DNA of 64,000 nucleotides from a virus (lineage: Duplodnaviria > Caudoviricetes): the IMG/VR virus record IMGVR_UViG_641201351_000001, positions 88,373 through 152,372 of that record, one strand, 5' to 3'. The notes beneath the pieces were generated by a model, which had not been told where the DNA came from, did no database searches, and saw only the letters and a list, made by a program, of their open reading frames with translations. Numbering within the stretch: the first letter of the stretch is position 1; each line of letters opens with the position of its first letter. Below are positions 270-29,633 of this stretch, one piece after another. Made by a program: the position numbers and the translations under genes.

Positions 270-878
270 TTAAAAGTTTTCTTCTATTTCAAAGAGAACG
301 CAAATATAACTCCTAGAAACGACAATGCTTTCTGTTTTCTTTGATAGTGAAACTTGGGAGATTAAAGGAAAGTATATTTCTTTTTCTTTGGCAAAATCTT
401 CTTCTTTTGCCGGATAAAAGAAAATGTTTTTGCTTTCTATTGTTTGATAGGATCTCGTTATTGGGCTGTAAAATTTTTGTTGTGTTGTTTTTATCTTCAT
501 GAGAAAAGGTTTTGTTGAGTTGATGAGATATCTCTTTTCGTCATCATTAACATAGTTTAAATACATGCTTTCAAAAAGCAAATCTAAAAAGTCTTCTAAG
601 CCGCTTTCTAAATCTTCTTTATTTGGAAACATGTCAAAAGTTTTTCTGAGGTAAAAGAAAGATTTATTTACAGCTTCTAGATGAGAGAAGGGGTTATCTA
701 GTCTTCTTTCTTTTAACTGAAAAAGTATTGATCTGCTAAAAAACTTTGGTTTTCTAAGAAAAAGAAGCTCTTTGTTTTGTTCAAGGATTTTTTCAACTGC
801 TTCATAAATCATTGACTTAACTTTGTTTTGGTCAAATTTTTTGCTATCTAGCAAAATTAGTTTTTTCTCTAGCCTCAT
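270..878 (-). CDS. hypothetical protein, C-terminal Phe (EENF), leaderless
   Basis: 202-aa ORF; ATG 7 nt from -10 box. Confidence 0.8.
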   Translation of the reverse strand: MRLEKKLILLDSKKFDQNKVKSMIYEAVEKILEQNKELLFLRKPKFFSRSILFQLKERRLDNPFSHLEAVNKSFFYLRKTFDMFPNKEDLESGLEDFLDLLFESMYLNYVNDDEKRYLINSTKPFLMKIKTTQQKFYSPITRSYQTIESKNIFFYPAKEEDFAKEKEIYFPLISQVSLSKKTESIVVSRSYICVLFEIEENF

Positions 879-884
879 GTTTTT

Positions 885-913
885 AGGTTAGCAAAGCGCT
901 AAAGCGTTGTCAA
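885..913 (-). promoter_or_regulatory. early promoter, leaderless transcript
   Basis: TTGACA-17-TAACCT. Confidence 0.8.
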
Positions 914-976
914 GCGTTATATATTTGAGATGACAGCGTTTACTTATTTTTTCGTTAGAAAAAACTAAAAATTTTC

Positions 977-1411
977 TCAAAACACTTCTCTTAATATCAC
1001 AAACTCAACTTCTCCAAAGCACAAATATAGCGAACTATTTTTATCATAAACTCCAAAAATTGGTTTGTATATTGAATATGATCGGTGCGCATAATCCTTT
1101 TCAGACTTTTCTTTTAAGTAATATCTAATCAAATCTTCATAATCTTCTATTTGTATAATGTCAAGAAGTTCTAATGTTATTCTTCTTTTGAAATCCTCCA
1201 CGCTTGCATGTTCTTTTAAAGCAAACATTCTTTTTTCTTTCCAGCGATTTAAAGCGTGTTTGTAATTTTTAAAATTCTCTTTGTATTTTGAATACGCTTT
1301 CTCAAAATCTTTGTAGTAAGTAATTTTGTGAGCATAATGCTTTAGAGAAATCATCGGGCTGTAGTGAGGTTGTGCAAAAAAGTATTTTTTGGCCTTTACT
1401 TCAAAAATCAT
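977..1411 (-). CDS. hypothetical protein ending EVF, paralog of 1424..1849
   Basis: shared EVKxKKYF, YEDLI, KPIxG, FGEVE motifs. Confidence 0.85.
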   Translation of the reverse strand: MIFEVKAKKYFFAQPHYSPMISLKHYAHKITYYKDFEKAYSKYKENFKNYKHALNRWKEKRMFALKEHASVEDFKRRITLELLDIIQIEDYEDLIRYYLKEKSEKDYAHRSYSIYKPIFGVYDKNSSLYLCFGEVEFVILREVF

Positions 1412-1423
1412 AATTAAACCCCT

Positions 1424-1849
1424 TCAAAACACTTCATGAATTTTCACATATTCAACTTCTCCGAAAAATACATAAGCTAGATTACTTTTATCGTGAAACC
1501 CCAAAATCGGTTTATGTATCAAAAAGAGATTTCTTTTAAACTTCCCATTCAAATATGAAGTTATCAAATCTTCGTAAGTTTCCATTGGAAACATATAAAG
1601 AACTTCTGATGTTCTTAAATTTTCAAAGTATTCTATAGGTTTTAATTCTTCCTCTAAAACAAACATTTTTATTCCCTCCCAACGATTAAATGCAACTTTG
1701 TAATTACGAAATTCTTTTTTGTAGGCTTCAAAAGCATTTTCAAAGGTTTTGTAATAGTAAATTTTGTAAGTATATCTCTTTAAGTGTATCTTTGGATTGT
1801 AGTAGGGTTTTACATAGAAATATTTTTTACCCTTGACCTCCAATGTCAT
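1424..1849 (-). CDS. hypothetical protein ending EVF, paralog of 977..1411
   Basis: GGAGGTG SD; promoter TTGCCT-17-TAGCCT at 1868-1896. Confidence 0.85.
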   Translation of the reverse strand: MTLEVKGKKYFYVKPYYNPKIHLKRYTYKIYYYKTFENAFEAYKKEFRNYKVAFNRWEGIKMFVLEEELKPIEYFENLRTSEVLYMFPMETYEDLITSYLNGKFKRNLFLIHKPILGFHDKSNLAYVFFGEVEYVKIHEVF

Positions 1850-2108
1850 GACTCACCTCCTAGCATCAGGCTAACACAAGGGGTGCTAAAAGGCAAGAAG
1901 GGCTTTGGTGTGGAAAAGGGTATTAAAATAGGGGGCCCAAAAATATGTGGATAGCGTTTACTTAGTTTTGGCAAAAATAAAAACAAAAAATAATTTCCTA
2001 GAAAATCTCTAGTGGAAAAATTTCAAAAACTTCTATATCTCCGAACAAAAGATTTCTCTATGTACTATTGGTCTAGTTTTCATTACAAACGGAATGTTTA
2101 TGTTCACC

Positions 2109-2555
2109 TCAAAAGTAAGGAAAATAGTCAGGGAAAAATATTAAGTCTACAAGTATTCTCTTCTTCGGATTATATCTATGTGTACTTTCGGCAAAAGACA
2201 ATATGATTGTATCAGGAACTAAACCTTTCCTATACGCAGATATTACCTTTTTGTGAATAAAAGGATGTGGGTTTTTAATAAATTCAAAAATGTTTTTGGA
2301 TTTTCTATAGTTAAGCCTGAAGTTATAGGGTGTAAAGGTAAAATATTGGTTTAGCATTAAAAACGCCTTAATACCAATATCTACAGGAATATCTGTACTT
2401 ACATACTTGTATCCGCTATATTTGTGGTCTTCCTTTAATCCGTATCCTTGAGGATTAAGAAATTCATTTACATCTTGAGCATACTTTTCTAAAATTTTCT
2501 TAAAGTGCGAACTTTTTACAATATAAAGTTTTGCGTAAGTGCTGCTTGCAACCAT
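2109..2555 (-). CDS. hypothetical protein (ends FPYF), leaderless
   Basis: promoter TTGACT-17-TAGGGT at 2562-2590. Confidence 0.8.
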   Translation of the reverse strand: MVASSTYAKLYIVKSSHFKKILEKYAQDVNEFLNPQGYGLKEDHKYSGYKYVSTDIPVDIGIKAFLMLNQYFTFTPYNFRLNYRKSKNIFEFIKNPHPFIHKKVISAYRKGLVPDTIILSFAESTHRYNPKKRILVDLIFFPDYFPYF

Positions 2556-3462: not shown

Positions 3463-4008
3463 TCAGAAAGAAATGTTCTTTTTAACAAGGTAAGCGTTAG
3501 CGTACACTCTGAAAATATCTTCTCTTTCACCTTTAAACTCTACTTCTAACCTAAAAATTTTTATTGGCACAAAAAGATACGCTGGTATTCTTTGTAGAAT
3601 TTGCAAATCATTACATGCTTTAAAAAGCTCTTTAAAGGACTTAAAGAAAAATGCATGGTTTTCTACTCTTTTTAAATTTCTTGAAATTTCTAAAAAAAAC
3701 TCAGAATCAGCAGATCCTTTTACTGCAAGTGTTCTTGCTACACTAGCGGGATAAAGAAGCCAATATATGTCTTTCAAATCCACACTTTCTACCGAAACAA
3801 GTTTAAGATTTTTTAGTTTTAATATTTGCGGCCCTAACCCTTCATTTAGCATTTTAAAATCTTTTTCTATTTGAGAAAAATCATCTATGAAAACAACTTT
3901 GTTGCTAACGATTGAAGCCAATTTTTCAGACATTTTTTGAATATAGTCTTTTTCATTAAAGACTGCATATCGTTTATGTAAAACATCTAAGAATGGTGGT
4001 ACTTCCAT
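3463..4008 (-). CDS. hypothetical protein (ends ISF)
   Basis: SD; promoter TTGACA-17-TACACT at 4034-4062. Confidence 0.8.
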   Translation of the reverse strand: MEVPPFLDVLHKRYAVFNEKDYIQKMSEKLASIVSNKVVFIDDFSQIEKDFKMLNEGLGPQILKLKNLKLVSVESVDLKDIYWLLYPASVARTLAVKGSADSEFFLEISRNLKRVENHAFFFKSFKELFKACNDLQILQRIPAYLFVPIKIFRLEVEFKGEREDIFRVYANAYLVKKNISF

Positions 4009-4130: not shown

Positions 4131-4673
4131 TTAAAATATCTCGTTAAGGCTATACAAATACATCTTTCCTAGCATTGCAGAAACCTCTATTTTTAGAGAG
4201 GTTTCTTCAGGTTTTGTATTTTCAAAGGTTATGTAATAATCGGGAATAAAGATTTGACCTTTTTTAAAATCAAAGATGTTGTCAATAGCGTAAAAGTATT
4301 TTTTGCTTACAACTTTAACTCTTATTTTGTCGCTATAAATTCCATTTATTCCATTTGCTGGAACAGCATAATCTGCTATGTAAAAAGCTATATCGTTTTT
4401 AAAAGTTTTTATTTTTCTTGGCGCAAATTTGTCAAGTAGCGATTCAAAAGGTGCGGATCTATAGTGATAAAGATTTTTAACAAATAAAGTTCCCAAATCA
4501 AGAATTGTGTCTATATCATATTTGTCTTCCTCAAAAATCATCATTGGAAGCCTTTTCTTTTCATTAAAGTCAAACTTTTTACCATTCTGAGTAATGTAGT
4601 ATCTGAAGATAACAAGAACTTCATCAGAAAATTTTTTCTCAAAAACTTCAGTATTTACGATGTTTCTAATCAT
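4131..4673 (-). CDS. hypothetical protein (ends EIF)
   Basis: TAATG coupling to the upstream gene, SD inside its last codons. Confidence 0.8.
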   Translation of the reverse strand: MIRNIVNTEVFEKKFSDEVLVIFRYYITQNGKKFDFNEKKRLPMMIFEEDKYDIDTILDLGTLFVKNLYHYRSAPFESLLDKFAPRKIKTFKNDIAFYIADYAVPANGINGIYSDKIRVKVVSKKYFYAIDNIFDFKKGQIFIPDYYITFENTKPEETSLKIEVSAMLGKMYLYSLNEIF

Positions 4674-5203
4674 TAAAACACCTCCTCTATTTTGTATTCA
4701 TACAAAACTCCAATTAATCCTTCTATCATTCCAGAAAGTTCATCTGTATCTTTCAAAAGTATTTTCCTTTGTGCAACAAATAAAGTATCGCCTTCTATTA
4801 CTTCTTTTAAATCTTTTATCTCTTCTATTTGAGAAGGCCTAAGATAAACAATAGACATTGTGTAGTCATCAATAACATGTTCGCTATAATCATCAATAAA
4901 AACCGAGAAATACTTTTTTTCAATAGCTTTGCTACAAACAACCTTTGTGCTGAAAGTCTTCAACAAATCTCTCTCAAGAGATAAACATGACAAGTTGTTG
5001 TAAAAATACTCAATTGATCTGTAAAAAGTTTTGTTGTCTACGAAATCAGAAATAATGAAAGATTTGTACAAAGAAAACTCTCCTACTATTTCGTCAGCAA
5101 AGCGATTGTTTTCGCTAGGATAATAGTCTAGTTCTAGATACGCTTTATATCTCTTCAAGATTTTAAAGGACTTTGACTCCAAGAAACCTTCTACTGCTTT
5201 CAT
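4673..5203 (-). CDS. hypothetical protein ending EEVF; family with 5965..6504 and 8461..8982
   Basis: shared KAYxExxYxP, FVAxRxxxL, IEGLxGxLYxYK; start re-set to ATG 5203. Confidence 0.85.
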   Translation of the reverse strand: MKAVEGFLESKSFKILKRYKAYLELDYYPSENNRFADEIVGEFSLYKSFIISDFVDNKTFYRSIEYFYNNLSCLSLERDLLKTFSTKVVCSKAIEKKYFSVFIDDYSEHVIDDYTMSIVYLRPSQIEEIKDLKEVIEGDTLFVAQRKILLKDTDELSGMIEGLIGVLYEYKIEEVF

Positions 5204-5246
5204 TCTAATCCCCCCCTTCTTAAAGACATAATCATAGCAATGAAAC

Positions 5247-5759
5247 TTAAAAAATCTCTTCACGATGCTTTACTCTATATATTCTTCCAACAAAACATTT
5301 TTCAATTAATTCTACCCTTTTAAACCATCTGCCTTCTCTAAATGACTCAACAACAGAATCAACAATAAGCAAGTAAACTGCAGGATAAAGCATTTCTAAA
5401 TCTGTTATTCTCTCTCTTATGTAATTCACTTCTGAAATCTTCATTCTATCGTAAACATAAGTTGTGTGAATTACTCTTTTGTTAGAAATAACCTTTTTCT
5501 CACTACCACTATGAGCTATAATATAGCAATCATACTCAGGGTCAAGAACTTGGTAAAAATAAATGTATTTGCGTCCTATCTTGTCAGTTGTTAGCTTAGA
5601 TATCTTTTTCAAGTATTCCTCTTTGTTCAAAATCTTCACTTCTCTAGATATGCCGCTATTAGAGAAAAAGTAGTTGGCATCTAAGATTTCTAAAAAAGGC
5701 AAAAAGTTTTTGAGGCTTTTGTAATCTTCTAGTTCTTTAATAATGCTTTCCCCCACCAT
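5247..5759 (-). CDS. hypothetical protein ending EIF; family with 7138..7653 and 7724..8254
   Basis: shared KEE, GRIYx[VI]K; promoter TTGACT-17-TAGCCT at 5777-5805. Confidence 0.85.
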   Translation of the reverse strand: MVGESIIKELEDYKSLKNFLPFLEILDANYFFSNSGISREVKILNKEEYLKKISKLTTDKIGRKYIYFYQVLDPEYDCYIIAHSGSEKKVISNKRVIHTTYVYDRMKISEVNYIRERITDLEMLYPAVYLLIVDSVVESFREGRWFKRVELIEKCFVGRIYRVKHREEIF

Positions 5760-5964: not shown

Positions 5965-6504
5965 TCAAAACACCTCCTCTATTTTGTATTCATATAAAAC
6001 TCCAGCCAATCCTTCTATCATTCCAGGAAAATCGCTAACATCATCAAGTAATATTTCTCTTTCAGCAACAAATAGTTGGTAGTTTCCTACTAGTTCTCTT
6101 AAGCTTTTTACTTCTTCTATTTGTGAAGGTTTGAGATATGAAACGACTATTGAGCTAACTTCATTGCTATAATCAACATATTCGTCAATAAAAAGCGAAT
6201 AATATTTTTTGGCAATTCTCTTGCCACTAATAACTTTCGTATCAAAAGTTTTAAATAAATCTCTTTCTAATGTTAAACCAGACATAACATTGTAGTAATA
6301 CTCAATGGCCTTGTAAAAGATTTTGTTGCTTACATAGTCAGAAATAATAAAAGCCTTACAACGAGAAAATTCTTCAACTATTTCGTCTGCAAAACGATTG
6401 CTATTGTTTGGATAGTAATTAAGTTCTAAGTAAGCTTTGTATATCTTTAATGCTTTAAAGTTAGCCGATTTTAAAAATTCCTCTAAAACTTTCACCTGCA
6501 TCAC
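5965..6504 (-). CDS. hypothetical protein ending EEVF, close paralog of 4673..5203
   Basis: near-identical C-terminus GMIEGLxGVLYEYKIEEVF. Confidence 0.85.
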   Translation of the reverse strand: MMQVKVLEEFLKSANFKALKIYKAYLELNYYPNNSNRFADEIVEEFSRCKAFIISDYVSNKIFYKAIEYYYNVMSGLTLERDLFKTFDTKVISGKRIAKKYYSLFIDEYVDYSNEVSSIVVSYLKPSQIEEVKSLRELVGNYQLFVAEREILLDDVSDFPGMIEGLAGVLYEYKIEEVF

Positions 6505-6512: not shown

Positions 6513-7001
6513 TCAGAACATGTAATCATAGGTCAATAAAAACCCCAGACCTAAAATATTGTGTGTTTCTTTCAATTTTCTAAAGCCTGCATTTAACACA
6601 AAAAACTCATCGTACTCCATAATAGGAAGAAACATAAAGTCTGTAAAATAATCTTCAATATGTGGCTTTACGAATGAGAAAATATTTTCCTCGTTTATTT
6701 CTTTAAATAAGATTTTTCCGTTTTCATCGTTAGTTACAAAAAATAGCTTTTCTTCATCGTAAAACTTAATATTTTTCACTTTTCTATCAGCGTCTTGATC
6801 TAAGGAAGCTTTTATTGCAGTATTTAAAAAATGTTCAAAATTTTTTCCTCCCAGATCAGTTTCGTATATGTGAGAAATCGTTGAAGCCACATCATTATCA
6901 AAATAATAGTATTTGATAGTTACTATTGAAAAGTGTCTTGCTTTAAACATTCCACTAATCTTCTTGATTTTTTCGTTTACTAAGCGAATGTATTCTTTCA
7001 T
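6513..7001 (-). CDS. hypothetical protein (ends YMF)
   Basis: start re-set to ATG 7001 after GAGGGGGTG; promoter TTGACC-17-TAAACT at 7021-7049. Confidence 0.75.
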   Translation of the reverse strand: MKEYIRLVNEKIKKISGMFKARHFSIVTIKYYYFDNDVASTISHIYETDLGGKNFEHFLNTAIKASLDQDADRKVKNIKFYDEEKLFFVTNDENGKILFKEINEENIFSFVKPHIEDYFTDFMFLPIMEYDEFFVLNAGFRKLKETHNILGLGFLLTYDYMF

Positions 7002-7137
7002 CTCTTCACCCCCTCGCCTTAGTTTAAAGGACAAAACGCCTTAGGTCAAGTAGCGTGCAAGCGCTCAGTTGTCTATATATAGAGGATAGCGTTTATCTAA
7101 CCTTTCACAAAAAAGAAAAAAATAAAAAACAATAATC

Positions 7138-7653
7138 TTAGAATACTTCTTTGCGATATTTGATCTTATATATTCGTCCTAAAGTTGACTCCTCAACTAT
7201 TTCTATTCTTTTTGTAAACATATTTTCTTTATAAGACGCAATCCTGTAATCAAGTACCAATAAGTAAACATTTGGATAAATGTTACTAACAAACTCTACT
7301 TCTCTTTGGAAGCTTTTTATTTTAATGGGAGAAGAATTATTAAATCTATCATATATGTAAGAAGGAAAACGCTTTCTAACATTAGATAATATATTGCTTT
7401 CTTCCCATTCGTGATAAACTAGATAGTATTTCGTTTCAGGGCGAAAAATTTGGTGGAAATATAAATACTTCCTGCCTTTTTTGTCAACTACTAGGCGAGA
7501 TAAAATTCTAATATATTCTTCTTTTTCTATCATTTTTATTTCATTAGAAACTTTCCACCCAGAACGAAAGTATTGTGATTTAATTATCTCAAGGAAAGGA
7601 AGAAAAGGTTTAATATCTTGAAAATCATTCAAGTCTTTTATTAGGTTTTTCAT
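7138..7653 (-). CDS. hypothetical protein ending EVF, paralog of 5247..5759
   Basis: FLPFLEI motif; promoter TTGACT-17-TAAGCT at 7678-7706. Confidence 0.85.
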   Translation of the reverse strand: MKNLIKDLNDFQDIKPFLPFLEIIKSQYFRSGWKVSNEIKMIEKEEYIRILSRLVVDKKGRKYLYFHQIFRPETKYYLVYHEWEESNILSNVRKRFPSYIYDRFNNSSPIKIKSFQREVEFVSNIYPNVYLLVLDYRIASYKENMFTKRIEIVEESTLGRIYKIKYRKEVF

Positions 7654-7723: not shown

Positions 7724-8254
7724 TTAAAAAACTTCTTTATGATGTTTAATTTTGTAAATTCGTCCAAATGTACATCTTTTAACGAAAGTTATTTCTTCTG
7801 TCAATTTGTTTTTCATATACAAGTCAATCTCAAAATCGTCAACTAAAAAGTAAATCAACTTGTCGCTTTTAAAATTCTCACTAGAAATTCTTAAAAGGAC
7901 TCTTCTAAACCTTTCTATCTCGTCATTGGTTATTCCATTAGAAAAAATATATGAGTAATGTCTACAAATACTAGGAATAACTTCAGTTTCCTCTCCAGTA
8001 TATTCCAATAAACAACAAGATTTTGGGTAAATGATTTTGTAGAAGAAGGTATACCTATTGTCTTCCTTCTCGCTTATTAACTCAGATATTGTCTGTAAGC
8101 ATTCTTCTTTTTCAATGATTTCTATATCTGGACATAAGTTTTCCTTTAAAACAAAATATTTTCCTTCAAAAACTTCTGCAAATGAAAGAATAAGCTTAAA
8201 TTTAGAAAAGTCGTCAAAATCTTTAACCAAATCTTTTGCCTCTTCTTTCCTCAT
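7724..8254 (-). CDS. hypothetical protein ending EVF, paralog of 7138..7653
   Basis: GRIYKIK; promoter TTGACC-17-TAAGCT at 8306-8334. Confidence 0.85.
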   Translation of the reverse strand: MRKEEAKDLVKDFDDFSKFKLILSFAEVFEGKYFVLKENLCPDIEIIEKEECLQTISELISEKEDNRYTFFYKIIYPKSCCLLEYTGEETEVIPSICRHYSYIFSNGITNDEIERFRRVLLRISSENFKSDKLIYFLVDDFEIDLYMKNKLTEEITFVKRCTFGRIYKIKHHKEVF

Positions 8255-8460
8255 CCTTACTCGCCCCCTCCTTACTTGCCCCTCCTTGACCTATGACACA
8301 ATAAAAGCTTACCCCTAAAGCCCCATAAGGTCAAGGAGGAGGATGAAGCTTTAGGAGAAGGTAAGCCCAAGGCTTTAGGGGGACATAAAACTGGCGAGAA
8401 GACATTTATTTAGGATAGCGTTTACTTATTTTTGACGAAACAAAAAATCAAAAAGCTTCA

Positions 8461-17556: not shown

Positions 17557-17596
17557 GTTTTGAGTATATGCGATTTGCTTTTTGTTGTCAAGTGTG

Positions 17597-20918: not shown

Positions 20919-20955
20919 CTTCCACCTCCTTAGGAATGTCCTTCCTGGTGGTTCT

Positions 20956-21447: not shown

Positions 21448-21625
21448 GCTACACACCTCCCCTCTGCTACCCCAACTATAAGCCTCACAAGGCCCTATGT
21501 CAAGGGGGGGTTAGTGTGTTTTTACTAGAAGAAGCACGGCGAGGCTTTTATTGTGAGTGAAATCTTGTTTAAACATTTTTGGGTGGTACACTATTATCCA
21601 AGTCTGGAAGGACAAACAAACAACG

Positions 21626-22141
21626 CTAGAAAACCTCATTACCCTTCTTGTATTCAAACTTCACTACGAAGAGTTTTTCTGTGCTTTCAACTTCTTTGTT
21701 TGCTAGTAGTCCCTGTAGAAGCGTAGGAAACTTGATGATAGTTGCATTAAAGCGAAAGTAGTAAGTAATGCTCACCATTCCTTCTCTTAAAGCTTTTATT
21801 GTGATAGATTTTCCAAATAGGTTTATCATTGAAGCGAATTCGTTTTCATTAAAGTTTGCAATTATGTTGTTTTCTTTACAAATGTAAATCGGCAGAGAAA
21901 CTAGTTTGTAAGGTGAGAACATTAAGTAGGAGAACTCAAAAGATGAGTCTACTTTTACTAGTCCAGACTTTGAAGATAGGTCTTTTTTAAATTCCTCTAA
22001 GTAGTATTTGACTTCTTCAAAAAAGTTGTAAAAATCAAAATAATCTTTGTATAGTGATTGTTTTAATGCTTTTTTATTTTTTGCCTCCTTGTAGAGAATT
22101 GTGATAAAATCTAAGGAGTAAGGAAGAAAGCTCTCAAACAT
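21626..22141 (-). CDS. hypothetical protein ending EVF
   Basis: PYSL motif; promoter TTGACC-18-TATTAT at 22163-22192. Confidence 0.8.
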   Translation of the reverse strand: MFESFLPYSLDFITILYKEAKNKKALKQSLYKDYFDFYNFFEEVKYYLEEFKKDLSSKSGLVKVDSSFEFSYLMFSPYKLVSLPIYICKENNIIANFNENEFASMINLFGKSITIKALREGMVSITYYFRFNATIIKFPTLLQGLLANKEVESTEKLFVVKFEYKKGNEVF

Positions 22142-22188: not shown

Positions 22189-22773
22189 TCAAGAGGTTGG
22201 TACACTATTATAGGAATCTGGAAGATACTCACTAACAGCGAAAGAATAAAGAAATACTATCTCTAGATAAGGATAAAGAAGTTCAAAGTATTTGTATCTT
22301 CCTCTAGCAAACGATGCTACTATTTCGACACCTTCAAGATTTTCGTTTAATTCTTCTTCTGTATTATTCAAGAAGTTTTCTTTTTCTTTAATTAAAGCGT
22401 TATAGACATTTTCAACTGTTGTGTTTCTTCCTAGGTTTACTTCTTTGATTTCAGGAATGTAGCTCAAGGTCTTTTCTTTCATGTTCTTTATTTGTTTGTG
22501 ATAAATCTTGACGAAAGAAAGCGTTAAATAGAGGTCAAGAGAGAAGTTTGCGTTTAGAACTTTGTCTAAAGATAAAGTTTTTTTGATGAATGTCTTTATG
22601 ATAAAAGACAGCTTTTCTTCACAAAATTCTTTTTTGCGAGTATCTAATTCAACATAGATCAAGGTTCTTTTTGATGTATTTCTTATTTCCAGCTTTGATA
22701 GCTTTCTTATTTCCAGAGAAGAGCCGCTATCAAAGTGTATTGTTGCTTTTTCTAGTGTGATGTTCGTCTTCAT
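22189..22773 (-). CDS. hypothetical protein whose 3' end reads through motif B (LPDSYNSVPTS)
   Basis: similar to 23793..24305 (EEK...FIKxT, LExV). Confidence 0.8.
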   Translation of the reverse strand: MKTNITLEKATIHFDSGSSLEIRKLSKLEIRNTSKRTLIYVELDTRKKEFCEEKLSFIIKTFIKKTLSLDKVLNANFSLDLYLTLSFVKIYHKQIKNMKEKTLSYIPEIKEVNLGRNTTVENVYNALIKEKENFLNNTEEELNENLEGVEIVASFARGRYKYFELLYPYLEIVFLYSFAVSEYLPDSYNSVPTS

Positions 22774-22784: not shown

Positions 22785-23282
22785 TCAGAATAAGACATTA
22801 AACTCAAAAGAAACTTCTATGCGCAAATCTTGTGAAATAGTCGCTTTATTAGTTTTTAACTTTGCGAAAGATAAAAAGAAGACATTGAGCGTTTTTTCTT
22901 CTTTAATAGCATATTTATAGCGTTTATTAATTTCACGCTGCATTAGACTAAAAATCTTTTGTTCACTAAATTCTTCTAAGCTAATAAACTTCTTTCCTAA
23001 GCGCTTTCTTAGCTCTTTGTAAGGCATATCGAAATAATAATCGCTTGATAGCAAAGATACGACTGCAAAATGTCCTAATTTGAAAAAAGGCGAATTAAAG
23101 TATCTTTTTAAAATCTCAAAACTCCTTGAGAAATTAGTAAACGCTTGATCAAAGAATTCGCTTCTTTCTTCTTCAAAAAACTCAGTTTTCCTAGTTGAAA
23201 GAAGGCTATCGTTAATCAAATATTCTTTTATAAACCTCAAACTTTTAGGTTTTTGCAGCGAAAAAAGCTCTTCGATTTTCAT
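22785..23282 (-). CDS. hypothetical protein ending VLF, paralog of 24317..24823
   Basis: MxIExL, KRx...FxxGxFxVxSL, EEFSExK, LKT shared. Confidence 0.85.
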   Translation of the reverse strand: MKIEELFSLQKPKSLRFIKEYLINDSLLSTRKTEFFEEERSEFFDQAFTNFSRSFEILKRYFNSPFFKLGHFAVVSLLSSDYYFDMPYKELRKRLGKKFISLEEFSEQKIFSLMQREINKRYKYAIKEEKTLNVFFLSFAKLKTNKATISQDLRIEVSFEFNVLF

Positions 23283-23290: not shown

Positions 23291-23761
23291 CTAAAAGACT
23301 TCTTTTCTTTCTAGAGTAGCTTCTACTTCTAGAAAGACTTTATCAAGGTTTCTTGTTAGATAGCCTAGTTCTATGAAGATTACTATTGCAGTAATTTCTT
23401 TTTCGTTCCTAAACGCTTCATTGTAAATTTGACTTATGCTTCCTTCAATAAATTTTAGGACTGACTTTTTATTAACGAAAGAAGTATTTTTAACGCCCAA
23501 ATCTTCAAATTTAGGTGTTCCGTTTTTTGTATTTGTGATTAGTGTATAGTGTATTTTTAAAATGTCTTGCACAACATCGCCTTCAGAATTTTTTGTTTGC
23601 TGATAGTATTTTGAAATGAAACCTTTAAGGTACTTATAAAAGTCTTTAGCTTTTTCTTCTTTAAGTATCTTTTTAAACGAAAAATTATTTTCTTCATCTT
23701 TTGAGTTTTTAAAGTATTCAAAGGCAAACTTCACTTTCACGAATTCAAAAGGCGCTAGCAT
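23291..23761 (-). CDS. hypothetical protein ending EVF, leaderless
   Basis: promoter TTGACA-17-TAGCAT at 23768-23796. Confidence 0.8.
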   Translation of the reverse strand: MLAPFEFVKVKFAFEYFKNSKDEENNFSFKKILKEEKAKDFYKYLKGFISKYYQQTKNSEGDVVQDILKIHYTLITNTKNGTPKFEDLGVKNTSFVNKKSVLKFIEGSISQIYNEAFRNEKEITAIVIFIELGYLTRNLDKVFLEVEATLERKEVF

Positions 23762-23792: not shown

Positions 23793-24305
23793 TCAACTTG
23801 GTACACTATTACTAAAGTCTGGAAGATGTACTATGTCGTAGTAGTATACAACCTCTAGAGATGCAACATGATCATCCTTATAAGGTGATCCTTTAGTGAA
23901 GATTATTGAAATGATAATCTGATCCTTTTTGTCTATGTTTTTTAGCTTTAACAGCTTTGTTAGCAATTCGTTTCTTTCTTTGAGGATTGTCTTAAGCACT
24001 TCTTCTGGTTTTATATCGTATCCAAGAGGTTTTTCTTTAGTATCAAGGTCTTCTTTCCTCATGTTGTGATTGACTGCTAAATAGAAATCTTCGTCTTCAT
24101 ATACTTCAAGAAGTTTTTCAATTTCTATTGTTTGTTTTATAAACTTAAGCATTAGTTGAATTGCTTTTTCTTCTAGTTCTTTTTCTTCGTGATCTTTGTT
24201 GAAGGTAAATTTGTATTTATTTTCTGCTGCTTTTAAAAGTCCTTTTGACGCAGCAAAAGACTCCTGTAAGTAAAAAAGTGCGATTTCGCTGAGCTTCAGT
24301 TTCAT
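23793..24305 (-). CDS. hypothetical protein ending in motif B peptide (LPDFSNSVPS)
   Basis: start re-set after AAAGGAG. Confidence 0.8.
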   Translation of the reverse strand: MKLKLSEIALFYLQESFAASKGLLKAAENKYKFTFNKDHEEKELEEKAIQLMLKFIKQTIEIEKLLEVYEDEDFYLAVNHNMRKEDLDTKEKPLGYDIKPEEVLKTILKERNELLTKLLKLKNIDKKDQIIISIIFTKGSPYKDDHVASLEVVYYYDIVHLPDFSNSVPS

Positions 24306-24316
24306 CTCTTCTCCTT

Positions 24317-24823
24317 TCAAAAAACGCCGTGCAAAGAGTAGTGCATTTTCAAGAACAATTTTTTTACTATCAAAGATGTTTCTGTCTTTAGCGCAACAAA
24401 GAACATAGATTCTAATGATAGGTTTTCGTTATTTAACAAAGCTTCTCTGTATTTCTTGTAGAAGCATTCTTCTGCTAAACGAGAAAATTTTTCTTCGCTA
24501 AATTCTTCAATTCTATAAACATTTTCAGGAAATCTATCTAGCAGACTTTTTTCTCTGCCATAAATCTCAAAATATTCTTCAGAAAAACTTCCTAAAGAAA
24601 AAACTACAAAATAGCCTTTGTGAAAATACTTTGACAACACAAACCTTTTGACGATGTTTAACTGCTTCAAAAATACAGCATTAAAGCTTTCAATTTCTTC
24701 TTCTGGAAAATTGTAGTAATATTTCTGCTTTCTAGCTTTAACAAATTTTTTCTTCACGAAGTGCTCAGTCGACACTTCTACGAAAAATATTTTGTGTGTT
24801 TTAATCAAGTCTTCAATGCGCAT
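24317..24823 (-). CDS. hypothetical protein ending GVF, paralog of 22785..23282
   Basis: GAGGTG SD; similarity. Confidence 0.85.
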   Translation of the reverse strand: MRIEDLIKTHKIFFVEVSTEHFVKKKFVKARKQKYYYNFPEEEIESFNAVFLKQLNIVKRFVLSKYFHKGYFVVFSLGSFSEEYFEIYGREKSLLDRFPENVYRIEEFSEEKFSRLAEECFYKKYREALLNNENLSLESMFFVALKTETSLIVKKLFLKMHYSLHGVF

Positions 24824-24829: not shown

Positions 24830-25348
24830 TCAAAAGCTAGGAAGAACAATGTCGTTTATTTTTATCGTGTAAGGAGGCTTTAAAGAAAAGATGTGTTCTA
24901 TTTCTAAAACCCAAACTTTTTCGCTTTGTTTTATTTCAAAAACTATTCTTGGCGCTATAGATATCGTGTAATCGTTAAAGTTTGTAATATTTTTTCTTAT
25001 TTCATTTAGTGTTTTTTCTGTGCTTTCAATCATTTCATAAGCTTTCTCTTTGAGAAAAAACGAAAGCTTCTTTTTCTTGTCTGACAAAATTTCGTCTTGT
25101 TTAATGTTTTTTATGTCCTCGAAGTAAAACCTTGTTTTTCCTAAAACATAGCCTCTATAATTGACGAATATGTAAATAGAGATTGTCTTTACATCCTGCT
25201 TTAGCGATTTCAATACAAAGCTATCAAGCGTTTTAATAAGTTTGTCTTTTTCATTCACAGAAAAAACAACATTTGATGCATTCGTGTAGCTAAAGAAGGG
25301 TTTGTATATTCCTTTCTTTGTGATTAAGCAAAGCCTTTCTAATCTCAC
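24830..25348 (-). CDS. hypothetical protein ending PSF
   Basis: GGAGGAG SD; promoter TTGACA-17-TATGAT at 25369-25397. Confidence 0.8.
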   Translation of the reverse strand: MRLERLCLITKKGIYKPFFSYTNASNVVFSVNEKDKLIKTLDSFVLKSLKQDVKTISIYIFVNYRGYVLGKTRFYFEDIKNIKQDEILSDKKKKLSFFLKEKAYEMIESTEKTLNEIRKNITNFNDYTISIAPRIVFEIKQSEKVWVLEIEHIFSLKPPYTIKINDIVLPSF

Positions 25349-25479: not shown

Positions 25480-26016
25480 ATGCATCCTCAGGAAGGTTGG
25501 CTTTTTGATGAGTTTGTCTTCTTGAGAAGAGCGTTTTCTCATTGTTCATATGTTGACAGCAATAACATAGTTCGTGATTATCAGGAAGAAATTGAAAGCT
25601 TAGAAAAACTAGAGGCTATTGTTGAATTAGCAAAGGAAAAATTAAAAGAATATCATAAAGAATTAAAGGAGCTAATTAGGTTTGGATTAAGAATAGAAGA
25701 AAATTTTCATTTAATCGCTATAGCAAACTTTTATAAGAGGTCATTAAGACACAAGTACGATAGAAAGTTAACGCTTGACGAAGTAATGTCTTTTTCTATT
25801 AGAGATGCGATAGACGAAACTATATCGCACTTCTTGAGATTTTGTGAAATTGAAGATTTATCTTTGATTTTGAGCTTGAAGTTTCCTTATTTGTCTGTTT
25901 ACAAGCCTATGTTAATTTCTAGAGCTTATGATTGTTTTATGATGATTCCTTATACTTCACAGCTTTTTCACATTAGCGCTGAATTTCTCGTTGATAAAAA
26001 TTTGCTTGTTTTCTAA
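25480..26016 (+). CDS. hypothetical protein ending LVF, inverted relative to the array, leaderless
   Basis: promoter TTGAAG-17-TAGTAT at 25445-25473. Confidence 0.8.
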   Translation: MHPQEGWLFDEFVFLRRAFSHCSYVDSNNIVRDYQEEIESLEKLEAIVELAKEKLKEYHKELKELIRFGLRIEENFHLIAIANFYKRSLRHKYDRKLTLDEVMSFSIRDAIDETISHFLRFCEIEDLSLILSLKFPYLSVYKPMLISRAYDCFMMIPYTSQLFHISAEFLVDKNLLVF

Positions 26017-26660
26017 AAAAATTCTTCTATTTCAGCGATTAAAGAATAATCGAACAAATTTGGTTCGCTTAAAATCTTCACTATCTCTCTAGTGTGTTTG
26101 TCAAATATTTTAGTATCTATTTGTTTTGTGTTTGTCGAATAAAGATCTGATGAAATTTCTTCATCGAAAACATTTAATCGAAAATCAAACTTGAACCGAA
26201 AGGAAATTTTTGACATTAAGCCAAAATTTTTAAGAAAATACATCGTTGCTTTTTCTAACTCTTTTTTTAGAGATAAGGAAGGAAGTTCAGAAAGCTTGTA
26301 TTCTTTTTTCAAGTCAAATCCTTTGTCTTCTCCATAGAAGGCTAAAGCGCTAAATTCTAAAGATTCAAAAGTAACGACATTTAATTTGTTGTTGCTGCTT
26401 TGATTTCTTACTACTCGTTTTATATTATTTAATTCACGATTAAACATCTTAGCTCTATCTTTAGCGAGATTAAAGAAGTTTTTTATTTCTTCAAACACAT
26501 CACAGTAGTTTGGAAAAAAGTAGCTAAATTTTACTTCGCTAAACTCGCAAGAATTTTTTGCAGGCAACTTCTTATCTGCTTTCTTTTCTAGGTAGCTTAT
26601 GTAGACGAAGCCTCTCGTGAAATTTAGTATGTCAAAGGCGCTGAAGGACACTTTAAACAC
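26013..26660 (-). CDS. hypothetical protein ending EEFF
   Basis: promoter TTGGCA-17-TATACT at 26678-26706. Confidence 0.8.
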   Translation of the reverse strand: MFKVSFSAFDILNFTRGFVYISYLEKKADKKLPAKNSCEFSEVKFSYFFPNYCDVFEEIKNFFNLAKDRAKMFNRELNNIKRVVRNQSSNNKLNVVTFESLEFSALAFYGEDKGFDLKKEYKLSELPSLSLKKELEKATMYFLKNFGLMSKISFRFKFDFRLNVFDEEISSDLYSTNTKQIDTKIFDKHTREIVKILSEPNLFDYSLIAEIEEFF

Positions 26661-26782: not shown

Positions 26783-27352
26783 TTAAACGCTAGGATGAGG
26801 AGTTGGTACACTATTGTATAAGTCTGGAAGGTTGAATAAATGCTGCCCAAGATCTAAGACTTTGTATTTCAGTTTAAAGACAGAACTGTAGGGAGTTTTG
26901 TGTCTTGATCTTTCGTGAGAAGATAAGCTAACAACAAGATCAAATCTAGTTAAAGGAATTCCTTTTCTTAGACTAAAGAATTCAATTAGTTCTTCTATTG
27001 AATCCTCGATGAAGAAATAAAACGCATTTTTTATTCTCTTTTCATTTGGCATTACTAGCCTCGCAAATTGAATTTGCTTAGACATTTCTAAATCTAGCTT
27101 GCATTCTTTGTTTTTTCCTAGTGAATAGACATTTATGCTTTTTGAGATCGTTAGGTCAAAGTCTTTCTTAATTATTGCTTTTGACAATACTTTTTCTATA
27201 AGCCTCTCTAAAGAGTTTTTATTTTTCGCTGATATTTCTGCTAAATAATGAAACTTAAACTCTTCAAGGTTCTTTTCATTGAAATACTCGTAGTTTATTT
27301 CGATTTGATTAAGAAAAAAGGTTTGCTTGTTGATTTTGATAAGTTCTTTCAT
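26783..27352 (-). CDS. hypothetical protein ending in motif B peptide (LPDLYNSVPT...)
   Basis: 189-aa ORF. Confidence 0.75.
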   Translation of the reverse strand: MKELIKINKQTFFLNQIEINYEYFNEKNLEEFKFHYLAEISAKNKNSLERLIEKVLSKAIIKKDFDLTISKSINVYSLGKNKECKLDLEMSKQIQFARLVMPNEKRIKNAFYFFIEDSIEELIEFFSLRKGIPLTRFDLVVSLSSHERSRHKTPYSSVFKLKYKVLDLGQHLFNLPDLYNSVPTPHPSV

Positions 27353-27354: not shown

Positions 27355-27885
27355 TCAGATCTCAATTTTTTTTCTTTCAAAATACACTAAAAACCAAATG
27401 ACATACTTTTCAGGAAAAGGTATTGTTTTATTTTTAAAGCTTGCGACAATTCTTTGCGCAAAAGATATCTTCAAGGTCTTGTTTTCGTATATGCAGTCTT
27501 TAAACATGCTATTTTCGATTATCTTTTCTATTCTTTCAGAAATCATTTTTGATAGGTCTACTTCGCTGACATCTTCAATGAATTCTTTGTTTGAACCTAG
27601 AAAATTTGTTAAATTTTTTATTCTCTTTTTCTTTTGTCCTTGTACTTCAATTTCAACATCATTAGCGATGACGACATCTAAATTCTCTTTTTTGATTTCT
27701 TTGAATGTTTTAGCGAGAAATTTTTTTGCAGCTTCAAAGTCTTCTGAAACAAACTTTCTTTGGTTGAATAATTCGTTTGTAAGGCCGCTAAAATCAATTC
27801 TTCTATAAATGCTAACTGCACAATTTTTCATTAAAAATCTTTGTTCGCCTAAGTCTTTGTTATAAAACAAAAGCTCTTTTCTCAT
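27355..27885 (-). CDS. hypothetical protein (ends IEI)
   Basis: start re-set after AGAGGAGGT. Confidence 0.75.
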   Translation of the reverse strand: MRKELLFYNKDLGEQRFLMKNCAVSIYRRIDFSGLTNELFNQRKFVSEDFEAAKKFLAKTFKEIKKENLDVVIANDVEIEVQGQKKKRIKNLTNFLGSNKEFIEDVSEVDLSKMISERIEKIIENSMFKDCIYENKTLKISFAQRIVASFKNKTIPFPEKYVIWFLVYFERKKIEI

Positions 27886-27898
27886 CCTAGACCTCCTC

Positions 27899-28330
27899 TT
27901 ATGTGTAATCTTTAAAGACTTCTTCATCTAGCGCTCTTTCAAACTCTTCTTTAGTGAGCGTTATAATCTTTCCTTCCTCAAAGAAGTGAATGCGCTTGAA
28001 GTCTAATTCATTTAATATGCTTGCGCAATACAAGCAAGGTCTAGTATTCTTAAGAAGGTTTTTTCTGTAGCCGAAAACAAAAATATCACTAGGATAAAAG
28101 TTTTCTTTTCTAGCCTTGTGAAAAAAGTCTAACTCAGCGTGAAGCGCTGAAAAGTGAGGATAGTCGTATTTAACTTGCTTGCTGATGATGTATTTATTTT
28201 CGCCAATTAGAATTTCTTTTCTATTTACGCCAACGCAATACATCTTCACTTTGCCTTTTGGTATATTCGCATCTCTTTCTAGCAAAATATTCATTAGACG
28301 AAGTAAACGCTCAATCTTCATGTGCGTCAT
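27899..28330 (-). CDS. cytidine/deoxycytidylate deaminase-superfamily protein
   Basis: HAE and PCLYC zinc-binding motifs. Confidence 0.85.
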   Translation of the reverse strand: MTHMKIERLLRLMNILLERDANIPKGKVKMYCVGVNRKEILIGENKYIISKQVKYDYPHFSALHAELDFFHKARKENFYPSDIFVFGYRKNLLKNTRPCLYCASILNELDFKRIHFFEEGKIITLTKEEFERALDEEVFKDYT

Positions 28331-28342
28331 AATAACACACGC

Positions 28343-28371
28343 TTGACAGAATGTCTAGCTTGCTTTATAGT
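28343..28371 (+). promoter_or_regulatory. sigma70-type promoter
   Basis: TTGACA-17-TATAGT. Confidence 0.8.
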
Positions 28372-28391
28372 AGGAGTTGCAATGAGGGGAG

Positions 28392-29102
28392 GTGTTTACC
28401 TTGCTGAAGTTAGGCGCACTAGACCTAGGCTCAAGAAGACAGATGATTGTAAAAGGAGTCGTAGAAGACGATGTACTGATAGTTAAAAGCTACAACTATT
28501 CTTACATTGAAGAGGAAGAAAAGAAAGAAAAGATTAGAAAGTTAGACGAGTTTTTAGAGAACAATGTTTTAAATGAAGACCTTGATACAATCATTTTAGA
28601 AAGAAGATTTAAAGACAAAAGAAAAAATAAAATACTAACAAAAAAAGAAGGATACAAAACTAACATAGATGCGTTTATCACTTTAAGCGAATACGCTAAG
28701 AACAAACTTTTGAAAAGCAATATAAAGTTGCTAACAGTAGAAGCTAGTAATATTGAAGCTTTTAAAATAACGAGAAGAAAAGGAAACTTTTCTTCACCAG
28801 GCTGGAAGCAAATTCTTACTGGAATCAATAAGCCTAACGACAAAGAAATTGAAAAAGAAATAAACAGTCTTGTAAATAAAGGAAAAATCATATACGAAGT
28901 AAACATTGAAGATTTACTTGCGCAAAAAGTTAAATTTTACATAGACTTCATTGACGCTGTAGGAATGCTTTATGCATACATTAAAAAACCAGAAATTTAT
29001 GCGTTAGAAGAACAAAATGATAACAAAGAACCTGAAGCAGACTTATACGAAGAAATTACAAAGGAGTTGTCAAAAAAACTTCTTGGCCCAATAGTGTCTT
29101 GA
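28392..29102 (+). CDS. RuvC/RNase H-fold nuclease, putative Holliday junction resolvase
   Basis: ALDLG near N-terminus, IILER, WK, IDAVG acidic pattern. Confidence 0.55.
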   Translation: MFTLLKLGALDLGSRRQMIVKGVVEDDVLIVKSYNYSYIEEEEKKEKIRKLDEFLENNVLNEDLDTIILERRFKDKRKNKILTKKEGYKTNIDAFITLSEYAKNKLLKSNIKLLTVEASNIEAFKITRRKGNFSSPGWKQILTGINKPNDKEIEKEINSLVNKGKIIYEVNIEDLLAQKVKFYIDFIDAVGMLYAYIKKPEIYALEEQNDNKEPEADLYEEITKELSKKLLGPIVS

Positions 29103-29633
29103 GTGAAATAAAACTCTTTTTGTGTTTAATGAAATTAAAAATTTTTTAGTGTTCCTTTTTATCTCATTGCTAATAACAAAAGCGTTTATTTCTTTGTAGT
29201 ACTTATAAGCGAACCTAGCGTCCTCATTAAAGTCTGCAACGAAAAGAATTAAGTCTTCTAGATAATAAGAATTCACGATGTAGCTTTTTATCGTCTTGTA
29301 GTCTTCCTTTGTCTTTATGTGATAGAAGTCAAAAACTTCTTCAACTTCAATGAATTTTTTATACGCCTTATACAAAGGCAAAGGATTTTGCAGGAAGTAA
29401 AAAAACAAATATCTAGAAAAAGTTTCTAAATAGTTAGTGCTAAAGCGATATCTTTCAAACTCTGAGATTTTTCTTATAGACTTGTATTGCTTAACAAAAG
29501 CGAACTCTTTCAGTATCTTCTTTTGTATTGGACTTATGTTAAAAATAATCCTATCGATGAAGTAAACGCTTCTAGCGTTTCTTTTAAACGCTTCGCTTGC
29601 TCTTAGAATTGGAAACGATAGTTTAGTGTTCAC
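29070..29633 (-). CDS. hypothetical protein (ends KFF)
   Basis: 187-aa ORF; TGcTATAGT extended -10 upstream. Confidence 0.7.
   Translation of the reverse strand: MNTKLSFPILRASEAFKRNARSVYFIDRIIFNISPIQKKILKEFAFVKQYKSIRKISEFERYRFSTNYLETFSRYLFFYFLQNPLPLYKAYKKFIEVEEVFDFYHIKTKEDYKTIKSYIVNSYYLEDLILFVADFNEDARFAYKYYKEINAFVISNEIKRNTKKFLISLNTKRVLFHSRHYWAKKFF

Follow-up and report, generated by a model that had tools for sequence, protein, structure and literature searches.

Why do most of the small proteins encoded in one 30-kb block of a Thermus phage genome end in the same amino acid? The block lies at positions 270-29633 of a 64,000-nucleotide stretch of DNA (the window), which comprises bases 88373-152372 of the 152,372-bp genome of a phiYS40-type Thermus phage. 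Its products commonly carry a C-terminal phenylalanine preceded by an acidic and an aliphatic residue ([ED][VIL]F), and the block is referred to here as the array. Comparison of related sequences indicates that the last residue and the position of the stop codon are under strong purifying selection, and structure predictions suggest that the terminal Phe was probably inherited within one superfamily of paralogs, rather than being a tag carried by unrelated proteins. No description of a terminal-Phe array was found in the literature searched, a search that did not extend to the primary phiYS40 papers and their supplements, where a mention is possible.

The window has a G+C content of ~32%, and over bases 30000-50000 the identity is 96% to Thermus phage TMA and 87% to YS40_Isch, in whose record the array genes are annotated as relatives of YS40_091 to YS40_138. 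Sevostyanova et al. 2007 reportedly assign this block to the 'early' region of the phage. Open reading frames (ORFs) were assigned mechanically, without curation, as the longest ORFs of at least 50 residues picked greedily with overlaps of no more than 60 nt; three of the 49 in the array region (plus-strand 2531-2713, 2661-2987 and 15845-16015) are probably spurious. Four phages were compared, namely this phage, TMA, YS40_Isch and a 157-kb IMG/VR record (G001), among which the gene content of the array varies by both gain and loss between close relatives.

Phe ends 34 of the 49 ORFs in 270-29633, compared with 10 of 123 in the remaining genome (Fisher p 1.2e-15). On the minus strand, 33 of the 44 ORFs of the block are Phe-ended, and the only plus-strand example is 25480-26016; since Phe makes up 8.6% of the residues of the minus-strand array ORFs, the binomial p for the terminal excess is 2e-26. 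Eighteen of the tails are of the form [ED][VIL]F (EVF 11 times, EIF, ELF and DVF twice each, DLF once), and two further array ORFs end in EVI. Beyond position 29633, Phe ends only three of 32 ORFs, 39099-39587 (YCF), 45881-47992 (NTF) and 58018-58656 (ELF). When the four phages are pooled, 115 of 174 array proteins are Phe-ended, and Phe is the majority ending in 27 of 43 BLAST families. The distant Thermus thermophilus myovirus phiLo showed no such enrichment (10/192 ORFs), which makes a general rule imposed by the host unlikely.

The conservation of this residue is visible at the codon level. Among the 25 families with at least two Phe-ended members in the four phages, TTT and TTC are both used for the last residue in 13, and the type of stop codon switches with its position unchanged in 12. 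The retention of Phe and of stop position through these changes indicates that the peptide is the target of selection. In 20 of 24 families the last residue never varies, compared with an average of 53% of alignment columns; the same holds for seven of the ten most divergent families, compared with 24.5% of columns. In pairs at 48-66% identity, Phe is kept as the preceding residues drift conservatively (KDVF to EEVF, EFF to ETF, GVF to EVF). Exceptions are an EVF tail that is DVY in three relatives and a KIF tail that is KIS in two.

These results largely bear out an earlier note on this DNA. Its 34 Phe-ended products are confirmed, with a denominator of 49 rather than 47, and its 18 [ED][VIL]F tails and two EVI tails are matched exactly on recount; it had counted two Phe-ended products among the later genes, missing 58018-58656. 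The four codon strings that it quoted are present, at 977, 7138, 23291 and 21626, and its argument for selection on the peptide agrees with the codon and stop changes described above. The count of terminal residues across the genome and in related phages, which it proposed as a check, gives a strong enrichment in the array, and relatives at 50-66% identity keep the terminal Phe, rather than showing the loss from orthologs that it held would speak against a tag. The genes concerned, with the two enzyme genes that lie among them, are as follows.

270-878, minus strand: array gene, 202 aa, ending ENF; ENF in all four phages
977-1411, minus strand: array gene, 144 aa, ending EVF; paralog of 1424-1849; DVY in the three other phages
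1424-1849, minus strand: array gene, 141 aa, ending EVF
2109-2555, minus strand: array gene, 148 aa, ending PYF; no relative found in the other phages
3463-4008, minus strand: array gene, 181 aa, ending ISF
4131-4673, minus strand: array gene, 180 aa, ending EIF
4673-5263, minus strand: array gene, 196 aa, ending EVF; paralog of 5965-6504 and 8461-8982
5247-5759, minus strand: array gene, 170 aa, ending EIF; paralog of 7138-7653 and 7724-8254
5965-6504, minus strand: array gene, 179 aa, ending EVF
6513-7034, minus strand: array gene, 173 aa, ending YMF; YTF and YKF in relatives
7138-7653, minus strand: array gene, 171 aa, ending EVF
7724-8254, minus strand: array gene, 176 aa, ending EVF
8461-8982, minus strand: array gene, 173 aa, ending EVF
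9203-10891, minus strand: HExxH peptidase/VWA-like protein inside the array, 562 aa, no terminal Phe
10908-11951, minus strand: AAA+ ATPase (AAA, AAA_5) adjoining the VWA-peptidase, 347 aa, no terminal Phe
12090-12785, minus strand: array gene, 231 aa, ending EVF
12855-13601, minus strand: array gene, 248 aa, ending SLF
13766-14158, minus strand: array gene, 130 aa, ending ELF; DLF in relatives
14159-14704, minus strand: array gene, 181 aa, ending EVI
14705-15244, minus strand: array gene, 179 aa, ending EVI; same ribosome-binding-site overlap as 14159-14704
15244-15735, minus strand: array gene, 163 aa, ending GVF; EVF in the IMG/VR relative
16079-16330, minus strand: short array gene, 83 aa, ending KIF; KIS in two relatives
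16431-16907, minus strand: array gene, 158 aa, ending EVF
17050-17607, minus strand: array gene, 185 aa, ending PYV in all four phages
17597-18163, minus strand: array gene, 188 aa, ending DVF; EVF in relatives at 48-50% identity
18138-18731, minus strand: array gene, 197 aa, ending DVF
18718-19167, minus strand: array gene, the modelled member, 149 aa, ending ELF
19180-19722, minus strand: array gene, 180 aa, ending DLF; paralog of 20400-20978
19769-20323, minus strand: array gene, 184 aa, ending DPF
20400-20978, minus strand: array gene, 192 aa, ending SVF
20956-21456, minus strand: array gene, 166 aa, ending FPF; paralog of 18718-19167
21626-22141, minus strand: array gene, 171 aa, ending EVF
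22189-22773, minus strand: array gene, 194 aa, ending PTS (...NSVPTS)
22785-23282, minus strand: array gene, 165 aa, ending VLF; TLF in relatives
23291-23761, minus strand: array gene, 156 aa, ending EVF
23793-24320, minus strand: array gene, 175 aa, ending VPS; DVL or DIL in two relatives
24317-24823, minus strand: array gene, 168 aa, ending GVF
24830-25348, minus strand: array gene, 172 aa, ending PSF in all four phages
25480-26016, plus strand: array gene, the sole Phe-ended one on this strand, 178 aa, ending LVF
26013-26660, minus strand: array gene, 215 aa, ending EFF; ETF in relatives
26783-27352, minus strand: array gene with a variable, non-Phe end, 189 aa, ending PSV; PDL in relatives
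27355-27927, minus strand: array gene with a variable, non-Phe end, 190 aa, ending IEI; KTM and ETM in relatives
29070-29633, minus strand: last array gene, 187 aa, ending KFF in all four phages

A cause at the level of nucleic acid was also considered, in which the tail codons are kept as a ribosome-binding site, a termination context or a joint for cassette recombination. Clear overlap with a ribosome-binding site was found only in the two EVI tails and two EEVF tails (GGAGGTG): the tail codons of 4673-5263 (GAGGAGGTG) double as the ribosome-binding site of the next gene, and the last codons of 14159-14704 and 14705-15244 (AAGGAGGTGATT-TAA-GTG) form both the ribosome-binding site and the start of the gene that follows. 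The EVI endings are spelled AAG/AGG GAG GTG ATT TAA GTG, in which the ribosome-binding site is a perfect one, and a nucleic-acid constraint seems to have displaced Phe in these genes. Tail codons are also more often G- or C-ended than internal ones (TTC 14/34 vs 165/710, GTG 7/17 vs 72/505, GAG 8/17 vs 185/820), and the ribosome-binding-site overlap covers only a few of them. Against such a cause, the distance from the stop to the next gene spans -29 to +739 nt, with long spacers after most tails; every synonymous codon and each of the three stops occurs, with relatives differing in their choice but keeping the residue; and of the 1986 non-gene stop triplets of the coding strand, only 177 (8.9%) follow TTY. 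The gaps, the codon variation and the TTY background rule out a ribosome-binding site or other DNA-level cause as a general explanation, and we regard it as hardly credible.

The relationship among the families was examined with structure predictions. An AlphaFold2 run on the 5965-6504 family alone (8 sequences) produced a low-confidence model with a predicted local distance difference test score (pLDDT) of 33. With 18718-19167 as the target and 76 array proteins (window, IMG/VR relative and database matches) merged into one alignment, an α/β model was obtained with a pLDDT of 78.4 and a predicted template modelling score (pTM) of 0.72; the two runs differ in both target and alignment, and the higher confidence after families were merged therefore lacks a proper control. 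The model has the order β-β-α-β-β-α-α-β-β, with the last strand at residues 132-145 followed by DELF as a four-residue coil, and contains no segment with a pLDDT below 50.

Stronger support comes from BFVD, a library of separately built models of viral proteins. A search of it with this model returned at rank 1 the same protein in a separately built model (100% identity, template modelling (TM) score 0.90 and root mean square deviation (rmsd) 2.2 over all 149 residues). Ranks 2-14 (E 4.6e-8 to 3.8e-3, TM 0.32-0.73 with 6 of 13 above 0.5, 7-16% identity) all fall in the accession series of phiYS40, TMA and YS40_Isch, and matches from rank 15 on have E of at least 1e-2 and TMq of at most 0.33. 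BFVD shows no names, and accessions were therefore mapped to genes by protein length and accession order against annotated gene tables. On this mapping, ranks 2-14 appear to cover ~11 further BLAST families of array proteins, including families without the terminal Phe (the PYV and DVL families and those of 178 and 174 aa). Four of the mapped matches are given below.

19769-20323 (DPF), best fold match: A0MNE0, 167 aa, E 4.6e-8, TM 0.68
15244-15735 (GVF), fold match: A0MND2, 163 aa, E 4.7e-5, TM 0.55
16431-16907 (EVF), fold match: A0MND4, 158 aa, E 7e-4, TM 0.52
17050-17607 (PYV), fold match: F9VHX1, 185 aa, E 5.6e-4, TM 0.43

Judging from the last of these, 17050-17607 probably shares the fold without having the Phe. 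Among solved structures, a Foldseek search of the PDB with the 18718-19167 model found nothing at E ≤0.001, the matches being kinesin fragments with TM ~0.35; the wide search with VIA peaked at Z 6.2, a value within what the tool states as noise, and a PDB profile search reached no better than E 0.21. The modelled fold thus appears to be without a clear match among solved structures. That the array families share this one fold is, on the strength of the models, likely.

The predicted shared fold bears directly on what the earlier note had proposed, that unrelated effector families each acquired the same address label for one receptor, be it on a capsid-loading route, an SSB or clamp pocket of the host, a protease or the AAA+/VWA machine. 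Most families are indeed unlinked by sequence; tails are coherent within a genome and differ by lineage ([ED][VIL]F here, [KR][YF]F in the metagenome contig L011 described below); and Phe also ends array proteins of the IMG/VR relative that BLAST does not match to any in the window (KFF, EIF, ETF). However, the approximately 11 other families, some of them tail-less, fall with the modelled member in the fold search, and the merged alignment folds confidently, so that descent explains the sharing without independent acquisition and is the simpler source of a common ending. Features of an SSB tail, a clamp motif or an outer-membrane signal are also missing (see below). The statement that the families have no visible similarity holds for sequence (BLAST and hhalign) and fails for predicted fold, where about 11 families come together. 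One divergent fold with the terminal Phe buried had been named as the outcome that would count against the label, and its first half, the single divergent fold, is largely what the merged-alignment model and the BFVD matches indicate. A single label on a library of unrelated effectors is unsupported by these results, with at least ~11 BLAST families appearing to share the modelled fold, and we consider it very unlikely.

The reading that we prefer is that the block is a lineage-specific, hyper-divergent superfamily of paralogs in which x-[ED]-[VIL]-F-COOH is inherited and the last residue acts as an anchor; taken as a whole, it has in our judgement an even chance of being right. The 30-kb block would consist of soluble paralogs of ~130-250 aa with one α/β fold, ~30-35 copies of which per phage would flank a MoxR-type AAA+ and a VWA/zinc-peptidase. 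The variable body of each paralog would bind a target of its own, much as members of other viral multigene families do, and the constant end, made up of the Phe side chain and the free carboxylate on an overhang of 3-4 residues past the last β-strand, would be the anchor in a pocket. Consistent with soluble products, the most hydrophobic 19-residue stretch in the 34 Phe-ended proteins has a hydropathy of 1.51 and none has a signal-like N-terminus; their charge is mixed, with pI above 8 in 22/34 and below 6 in 11/34.

The pocket may lie in one shared partner (in trans), to which we assign slightly less than an even chance, or in the protein itself as a cap (in cis), which is possible, if the less favoured of the two. 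In the trans arrangement, the prime candidate for the partner would be the co-inherited AAA+/VWA-peptidase pair, with the terminal carboxylate taken by the VWA metal site or by the peptidase site. The trans arrangement is favoured because 27 families, and also a lineage whose tails differ in chemistry, have the stop fixed after Phe; because probable members of the fold tolerate the loss of Phe and then have ragged ends; and because the AAA+/VWA-peptidase pair is co-inherited with the arrays.

A cap in cis could also be the entire explanation. The Phe and the carboxylate would then pack, where the last β-hairpin ends, into the protein's own core or a pocket with salt bridges, as a fold signature useful at ~70 °C with no reader. 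The tail extends only four residues past the last predicted strand, our own model and the public one superpose over their full length, and positions -2 and -3 (the last residue being -1) are family-specific, with PSF, LVF, SLF, ENF, DPF and KFF each found in 4/4 phages. Probable members of the fold nevertheless do without Phe, as in the PYV family, which is invariant in four phages; others have ragged ends (PTS/VPS/DVL/DIL, PSV/PDL, IEI/FEI/KTM/ETM). Moreover, divergent families usually vary in C-terminal length, whereas here the stop falls exactly after Phe in 27 families and does so again in a distant lineage with other preceding residues. We consider a cap without any reader rather unlikely.

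Several observations weigh against the preferred reading, either as a whole or in its trans form. A stretch rich in G, P, S, Q or N that could serve as a linker (residues -4 to -15) precedes the tail in only 1 of the 34 Phe-ended proteins, and the model, having no segment of pLDDT below 50, fits a packed tail; both points speak for a cap in cis. The odd tails PSF, KFF, ENF and SLF, each invariant within its own family, look like family-specific packing. The case for the fold comes from one usable model, that of the other family being at pLDDT 33, and the BFVD models are of unstated quality and were mapped to genes by length and accession order. The distant phiLo shows no enrichment (10/192), and the tails of L011 could owe their flavour to a separate expansion that began with another founder.

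Sequence comparisons among the families also count against it. BLAST among the window's array proteins finds only eight small paralog groups. Over 595 cluster pairs, hhalign gave a best probability of 37%; hidden Markov models (HMMs) with the last five residues removed gave no cross-family match of at least 15 bits, and their matches lie on a shared diagonal in 21% of cases compared with 17% for reversed sequences; and held-out families scored no better than decoys with a leave-one-family-out superfamily HMM. Only a weak signal is shared at residues -4 to -16, as judged from a position-specific matrix (mean z 0.6, p 0.002-0.03). Aligned from the C-terminus, these residues look like two strands with a Gly-rich turn near -12 between them. 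HMM-versus-sequence searches between families gave weak, non-significant links only.

Remote homologs of the array proteins are few. A HMMER scan with a three-paralog profile returned seven proteins, of which one is distant (P0020, E 6e-4) and ends in DIF; it stands alone on a 3.8-kb contig, and scans of viral and metagenome contigs and of the phage collection found no relatives of it. Two word-based searches for homologs outside the phage group returned close relatives only, a search of the ESM Atlas gave nothing above noise level and no model, and a viral-contig scan with 23291-23761 had no match. The Pfam scan of 42 array-region proteins gave a deaminase as the only array match above cut-off; NCBIfam and PADLOC gave single weak matches only, and in PHROGs the array proteins match only small unnamed families of their own phage group. 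Four database relatives of 5965-6504 (P0003-P0006) read on past EEVF with WWLE.., an extension that fits an alternative genetic code chosen for low-G+C contigs; their lack of a terminal Phe is thus probably an annotation artefact, with TGA read as Trp.

The two enzyme genes within the array are the candidates for a shared partner. The AAA+ ATPase (10908-11951) matches PF00004 at 4.3e-7 and PF07728 at 3.6e-5, both above cut-off. The product of 9203-10891 consists of an N-terminal region with a HEILH motif, a Q/N-rich linker and a C-terminal VWA-like domain with a DTSGS metal ion-dependent adhesion site (MIDAS); this DUF2201 domain matches PF09967 at 7.5e-7, above cut-off, and PF13203 (DUF2201_N) was not matched in the protein at E ≤0.01. 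In a 21-sequence alignment, residues H102, E103, H106 and H111 and D436, T437, S438, G439 and S440 are invariant. The linker, at residues ~215-300, is a long Gln/Asn-rich stretch of low complexity, which is odd for the phage of a thermophile. Remote homologs of the protein have 27-37% identity, and one of them, P0045, is found on metagenome contigs L010-L012. With P0045 as the query, a viral-contig scan had no match and a tblastn search of phage records found only TMA and YS40_Isch; a search with the VWA alignment found only two close IMG/VR contigs.

Contig L011 (G+C 29.5%) has the same layout as the window, with genes for proteins of 120-190 aa on both sides of an AAA+/VWA-peptidase pair that is 48.5% (AAA+) and 40% (VWA-peptidase) identical to that of the window. 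Its AAA+ matches PF07728 at 1e-7, and its VWA-peptidase matches PF13203 at 3.6e-5, above cut-off. Of its 24 array-sized proteins, 18 end in Phe and 4 in Leu; position -2 is Tyr in 12 and Phe in 4, and position -3 is Lys or Arg in 10. These proteins form at least 15 BLAST groups and resemble the window's array by BLAST only in the homologs of 12855-13601 and 28392-29102, the former being the only Phe-ended protein of the window with a detectable L011 homolog (SLF here, RFF there). What is invariant between the lineages is therefore the terminal Phe and a hydrophobic residue before it, whereas the charged residue flips. This may reflect either co-evolution of the tails with a shared reader or the expansion of each array from its own founder, a choice for which a single shared family is not enough.

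The same two genes, with the same domain order (an AAA_5-type ATPase, and an HExxH peptidase with a VWA-like DUF2201), are known from group 2.2 jumbo phages as a MoxR AAA+/vWA-metallopeptidase pair. Iyer et al. 2021 (PMC7824862) describe that pair as a chaperone and cochaperone, propose a role in virion assembly and give the substrates of phage MoxR/VWA-peptidase pairs as not known. The pair analysed here differs in lying in the middle of an array, as it does in L011. This synteny lends circumstantial support to the AAA+/VWA machine as the putative reader of the tails. A more specific proposal is that the Phe-carboxylate is a phage-encoded client tag, through which the co-inherited MoxR AAA+/VWA-zinc-peptidase would receive ~30 paralogs per genome by their last residue, to remodel them, process them or destroy them at a set time, with tag and reader co-evolving (acidic-aliphatic-Phe in the YS40 group, basic-aromatic-Phe in L011). 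We put this forward as a speculation of doubtful standing.

A host protein might instead read the tail, and several known C-terminal signals offer precedents. The tails of T7 gp2.5 and gp4 end in Phe and have a common reader, and outer-membrane proteins (OMPs) carry a β-signal with a terminal Phe that is read by BamA and by the PDZ domain of DegS. Like the array tails, the tail (DDDIPF) of SSB, which binds single-stranded DNA, and those of the two T7 proteins end in an invariant Phe whose carboxylate is free and which an acidic residue usually precedes. They differ in having long disordered linkers, Gly/Pro-rich or acidic, and a penultimate Pro or an acidic run, whereas the array tails are a 3-4 residue overhang straight off a β-strand and occur in ~30 proteins per genome, not two. 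In the 34 Phe-ended proteins, Pro is at -2 in 2/34; an acidic residue is at -3 in 21/34, at -4 in 9/34 and at -5 in none; and three or more acidic residues occur within -2 to -6 in 2/34. On this basis an SSB-type docking tail does not fit, with the terminal Phe present and the penultimate Pro, acidic run and flexible linker largely missing. The sliding-clamp motif does not fit either (Q...F$ 0/34; QL.LF$ 0/34, for QL[SD]LF), and neither the SSB nor the clamp pocket that the earlier note had listed fits these tails.

An OMP β-signal resembles the array tails in its terminal Phe at the end of a β-strand. The array proteins, however, have no signal-like N-terminus (a hydrophobic run of at least eight within the first 35 residues occurs in 0/34) and no membrane segments, and their position -3 is acidic and not hydrophobic (hydrophobic residues at -3 in 5/34, -5 in 18/34 and -7 in 23/34). 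The outer-membrane or DegS-type route, also among the receptors listed earlier, is thereby excluded.

A reader in the host in general, acting on the tail as a degron or a hub signal, could be a PDZ protease, FtsH, Lon, the sliding clamp or a protein that binds SSB tails, and would serve timed turnover or delivery. The phage genome has no match to PDZ_2, PDZ_6 or S41, all three of which match in a Thermus thermophilus control genome, so that a PDZ-type reader would have to be host-encoded. The T7 tails are a phage precedent for such a hub. According to PMC1761420, Thermus SSB has a conserved acidic tail with a penultimate Pro and a terminal Phe that is read by several proteins. On the other side stand the absence of enrichment in phiLo, which has the same host, the poor fit of the tails to both the SSB and the clamp signals, and the basic tails of the L011 lineage. 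We consider a host reader quite unlikely.

Two further comparisons help to place the array. The HbYX motifs of proteasome activators are also last-three-residue anchors, in which the carboxylate and an aromatic ring sit in a pocket of a ring machine. The L011 tails KYL, SYL, PYL, VYL and KYF resemble them, whereas the tails of the YS40 group have Val, Ile or Leu, not Tyr, at -2; to our knowledge, Thermus has no 20S proteasome. The multigene families of African swine fever virus (ASFV MGF) and of poxviruses are viral paralog families in gene-accordion arrays. They share with the array the tandem arrangement of fast-diverging paralogs on one scaffold, gained and lost among close relatives; unlike in those families, similarity here has decayed below detection while the last residue stays. 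We know of no viral multigene family that is defined by a strictly terminal residue.

Some features of the array and its surroundings were noted in addition. Two products encoded outside the array have array-like ends and may be stray members of the superfamily, the 212-aa product of 58018-58656 (minus strand, ELF, no Pfam match) and the 171-aa product of genome positions 61167-61682 (minus strand, DVF). The dCMP deaminase at 27899-28330 (minus strand; PF00383, 1.3e-5) has EEVF four residues before its end (...EEVFKDYT), and that of the IMG/VR relative has EEMFKDYT at the same place; this may be a coincidence or a former tail lengthened by four residues. Transposase and resolvase-like genes are present within the TMA array (L001 26651-28673) and an IS607-family transposase within that of YS40_Isch (L002 29026-30492); the window has no transposase at either place.

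Two nucleotide motifs recur in the array. The 24-nt motif CCAGACTTGGATAATAGTGTACCA has four matches at no more than three mismatches, compared with none expected. Two of these lie within the 3' ends of the non-Phe genes 23793-24320 and 26783-27352, where they are translated as ...NSVP... endings; 22189-22773 has a similar end (...NSVPTS), yet no match to the motif at this threshold. CCAGACTTGGATAATAGTGTACCA is probably a regulatory or recombination site into which coding sequence has run. The motif AAATAAGTAAACGCT has 12 matches from 935 to 29195 (11 on the coding strand), compared with 0.75 expected; it marks many of the intergenic spacers of the array and is likely part of the promoters of self-contained gene units.

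16993-17016, minus strand: match to CCAGACTTGGATAATAGTGTACCA
21584-21607, minus strand: match to CCAGACTTGGATAATAGTGTACCA
23799-23822, minus strand: match to CCAGACTTGGATAATAGTGTACCA
26804-26827, minus strand: match to CCAGACTTGGATAATAGTGTACCA
935-949: example of AAATAAGTAAACGCT
8417-8431: example of AAATAAGTAAACGCT
12072-12086: example of AAATAAGTAAACGCT
13716-13730: example of AAATAAGTAAACGCT

In this long-studied Thermus phage, one fifth of the genome codes for proteins without an assigned function. The present analysis reduces ~27 apparently unrelated families to one probable fold and offers their last residue as a common experimental handle. If the terminal Phe is a cap in cis, these genes would show with unusual clarity how, in a fast-evolving viral family, one terminal residue can persist after all other sequence similarity has gone. 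If the anchor acts in trans, the tail would be a client signal for phage MoxR/VWA-peptidase pairs and a portable thermostable tag. Should it prove to be a client tag, the viral effector library would have a private code for its targeting, and a phage MoxR/VWA machine its first defined client signal.

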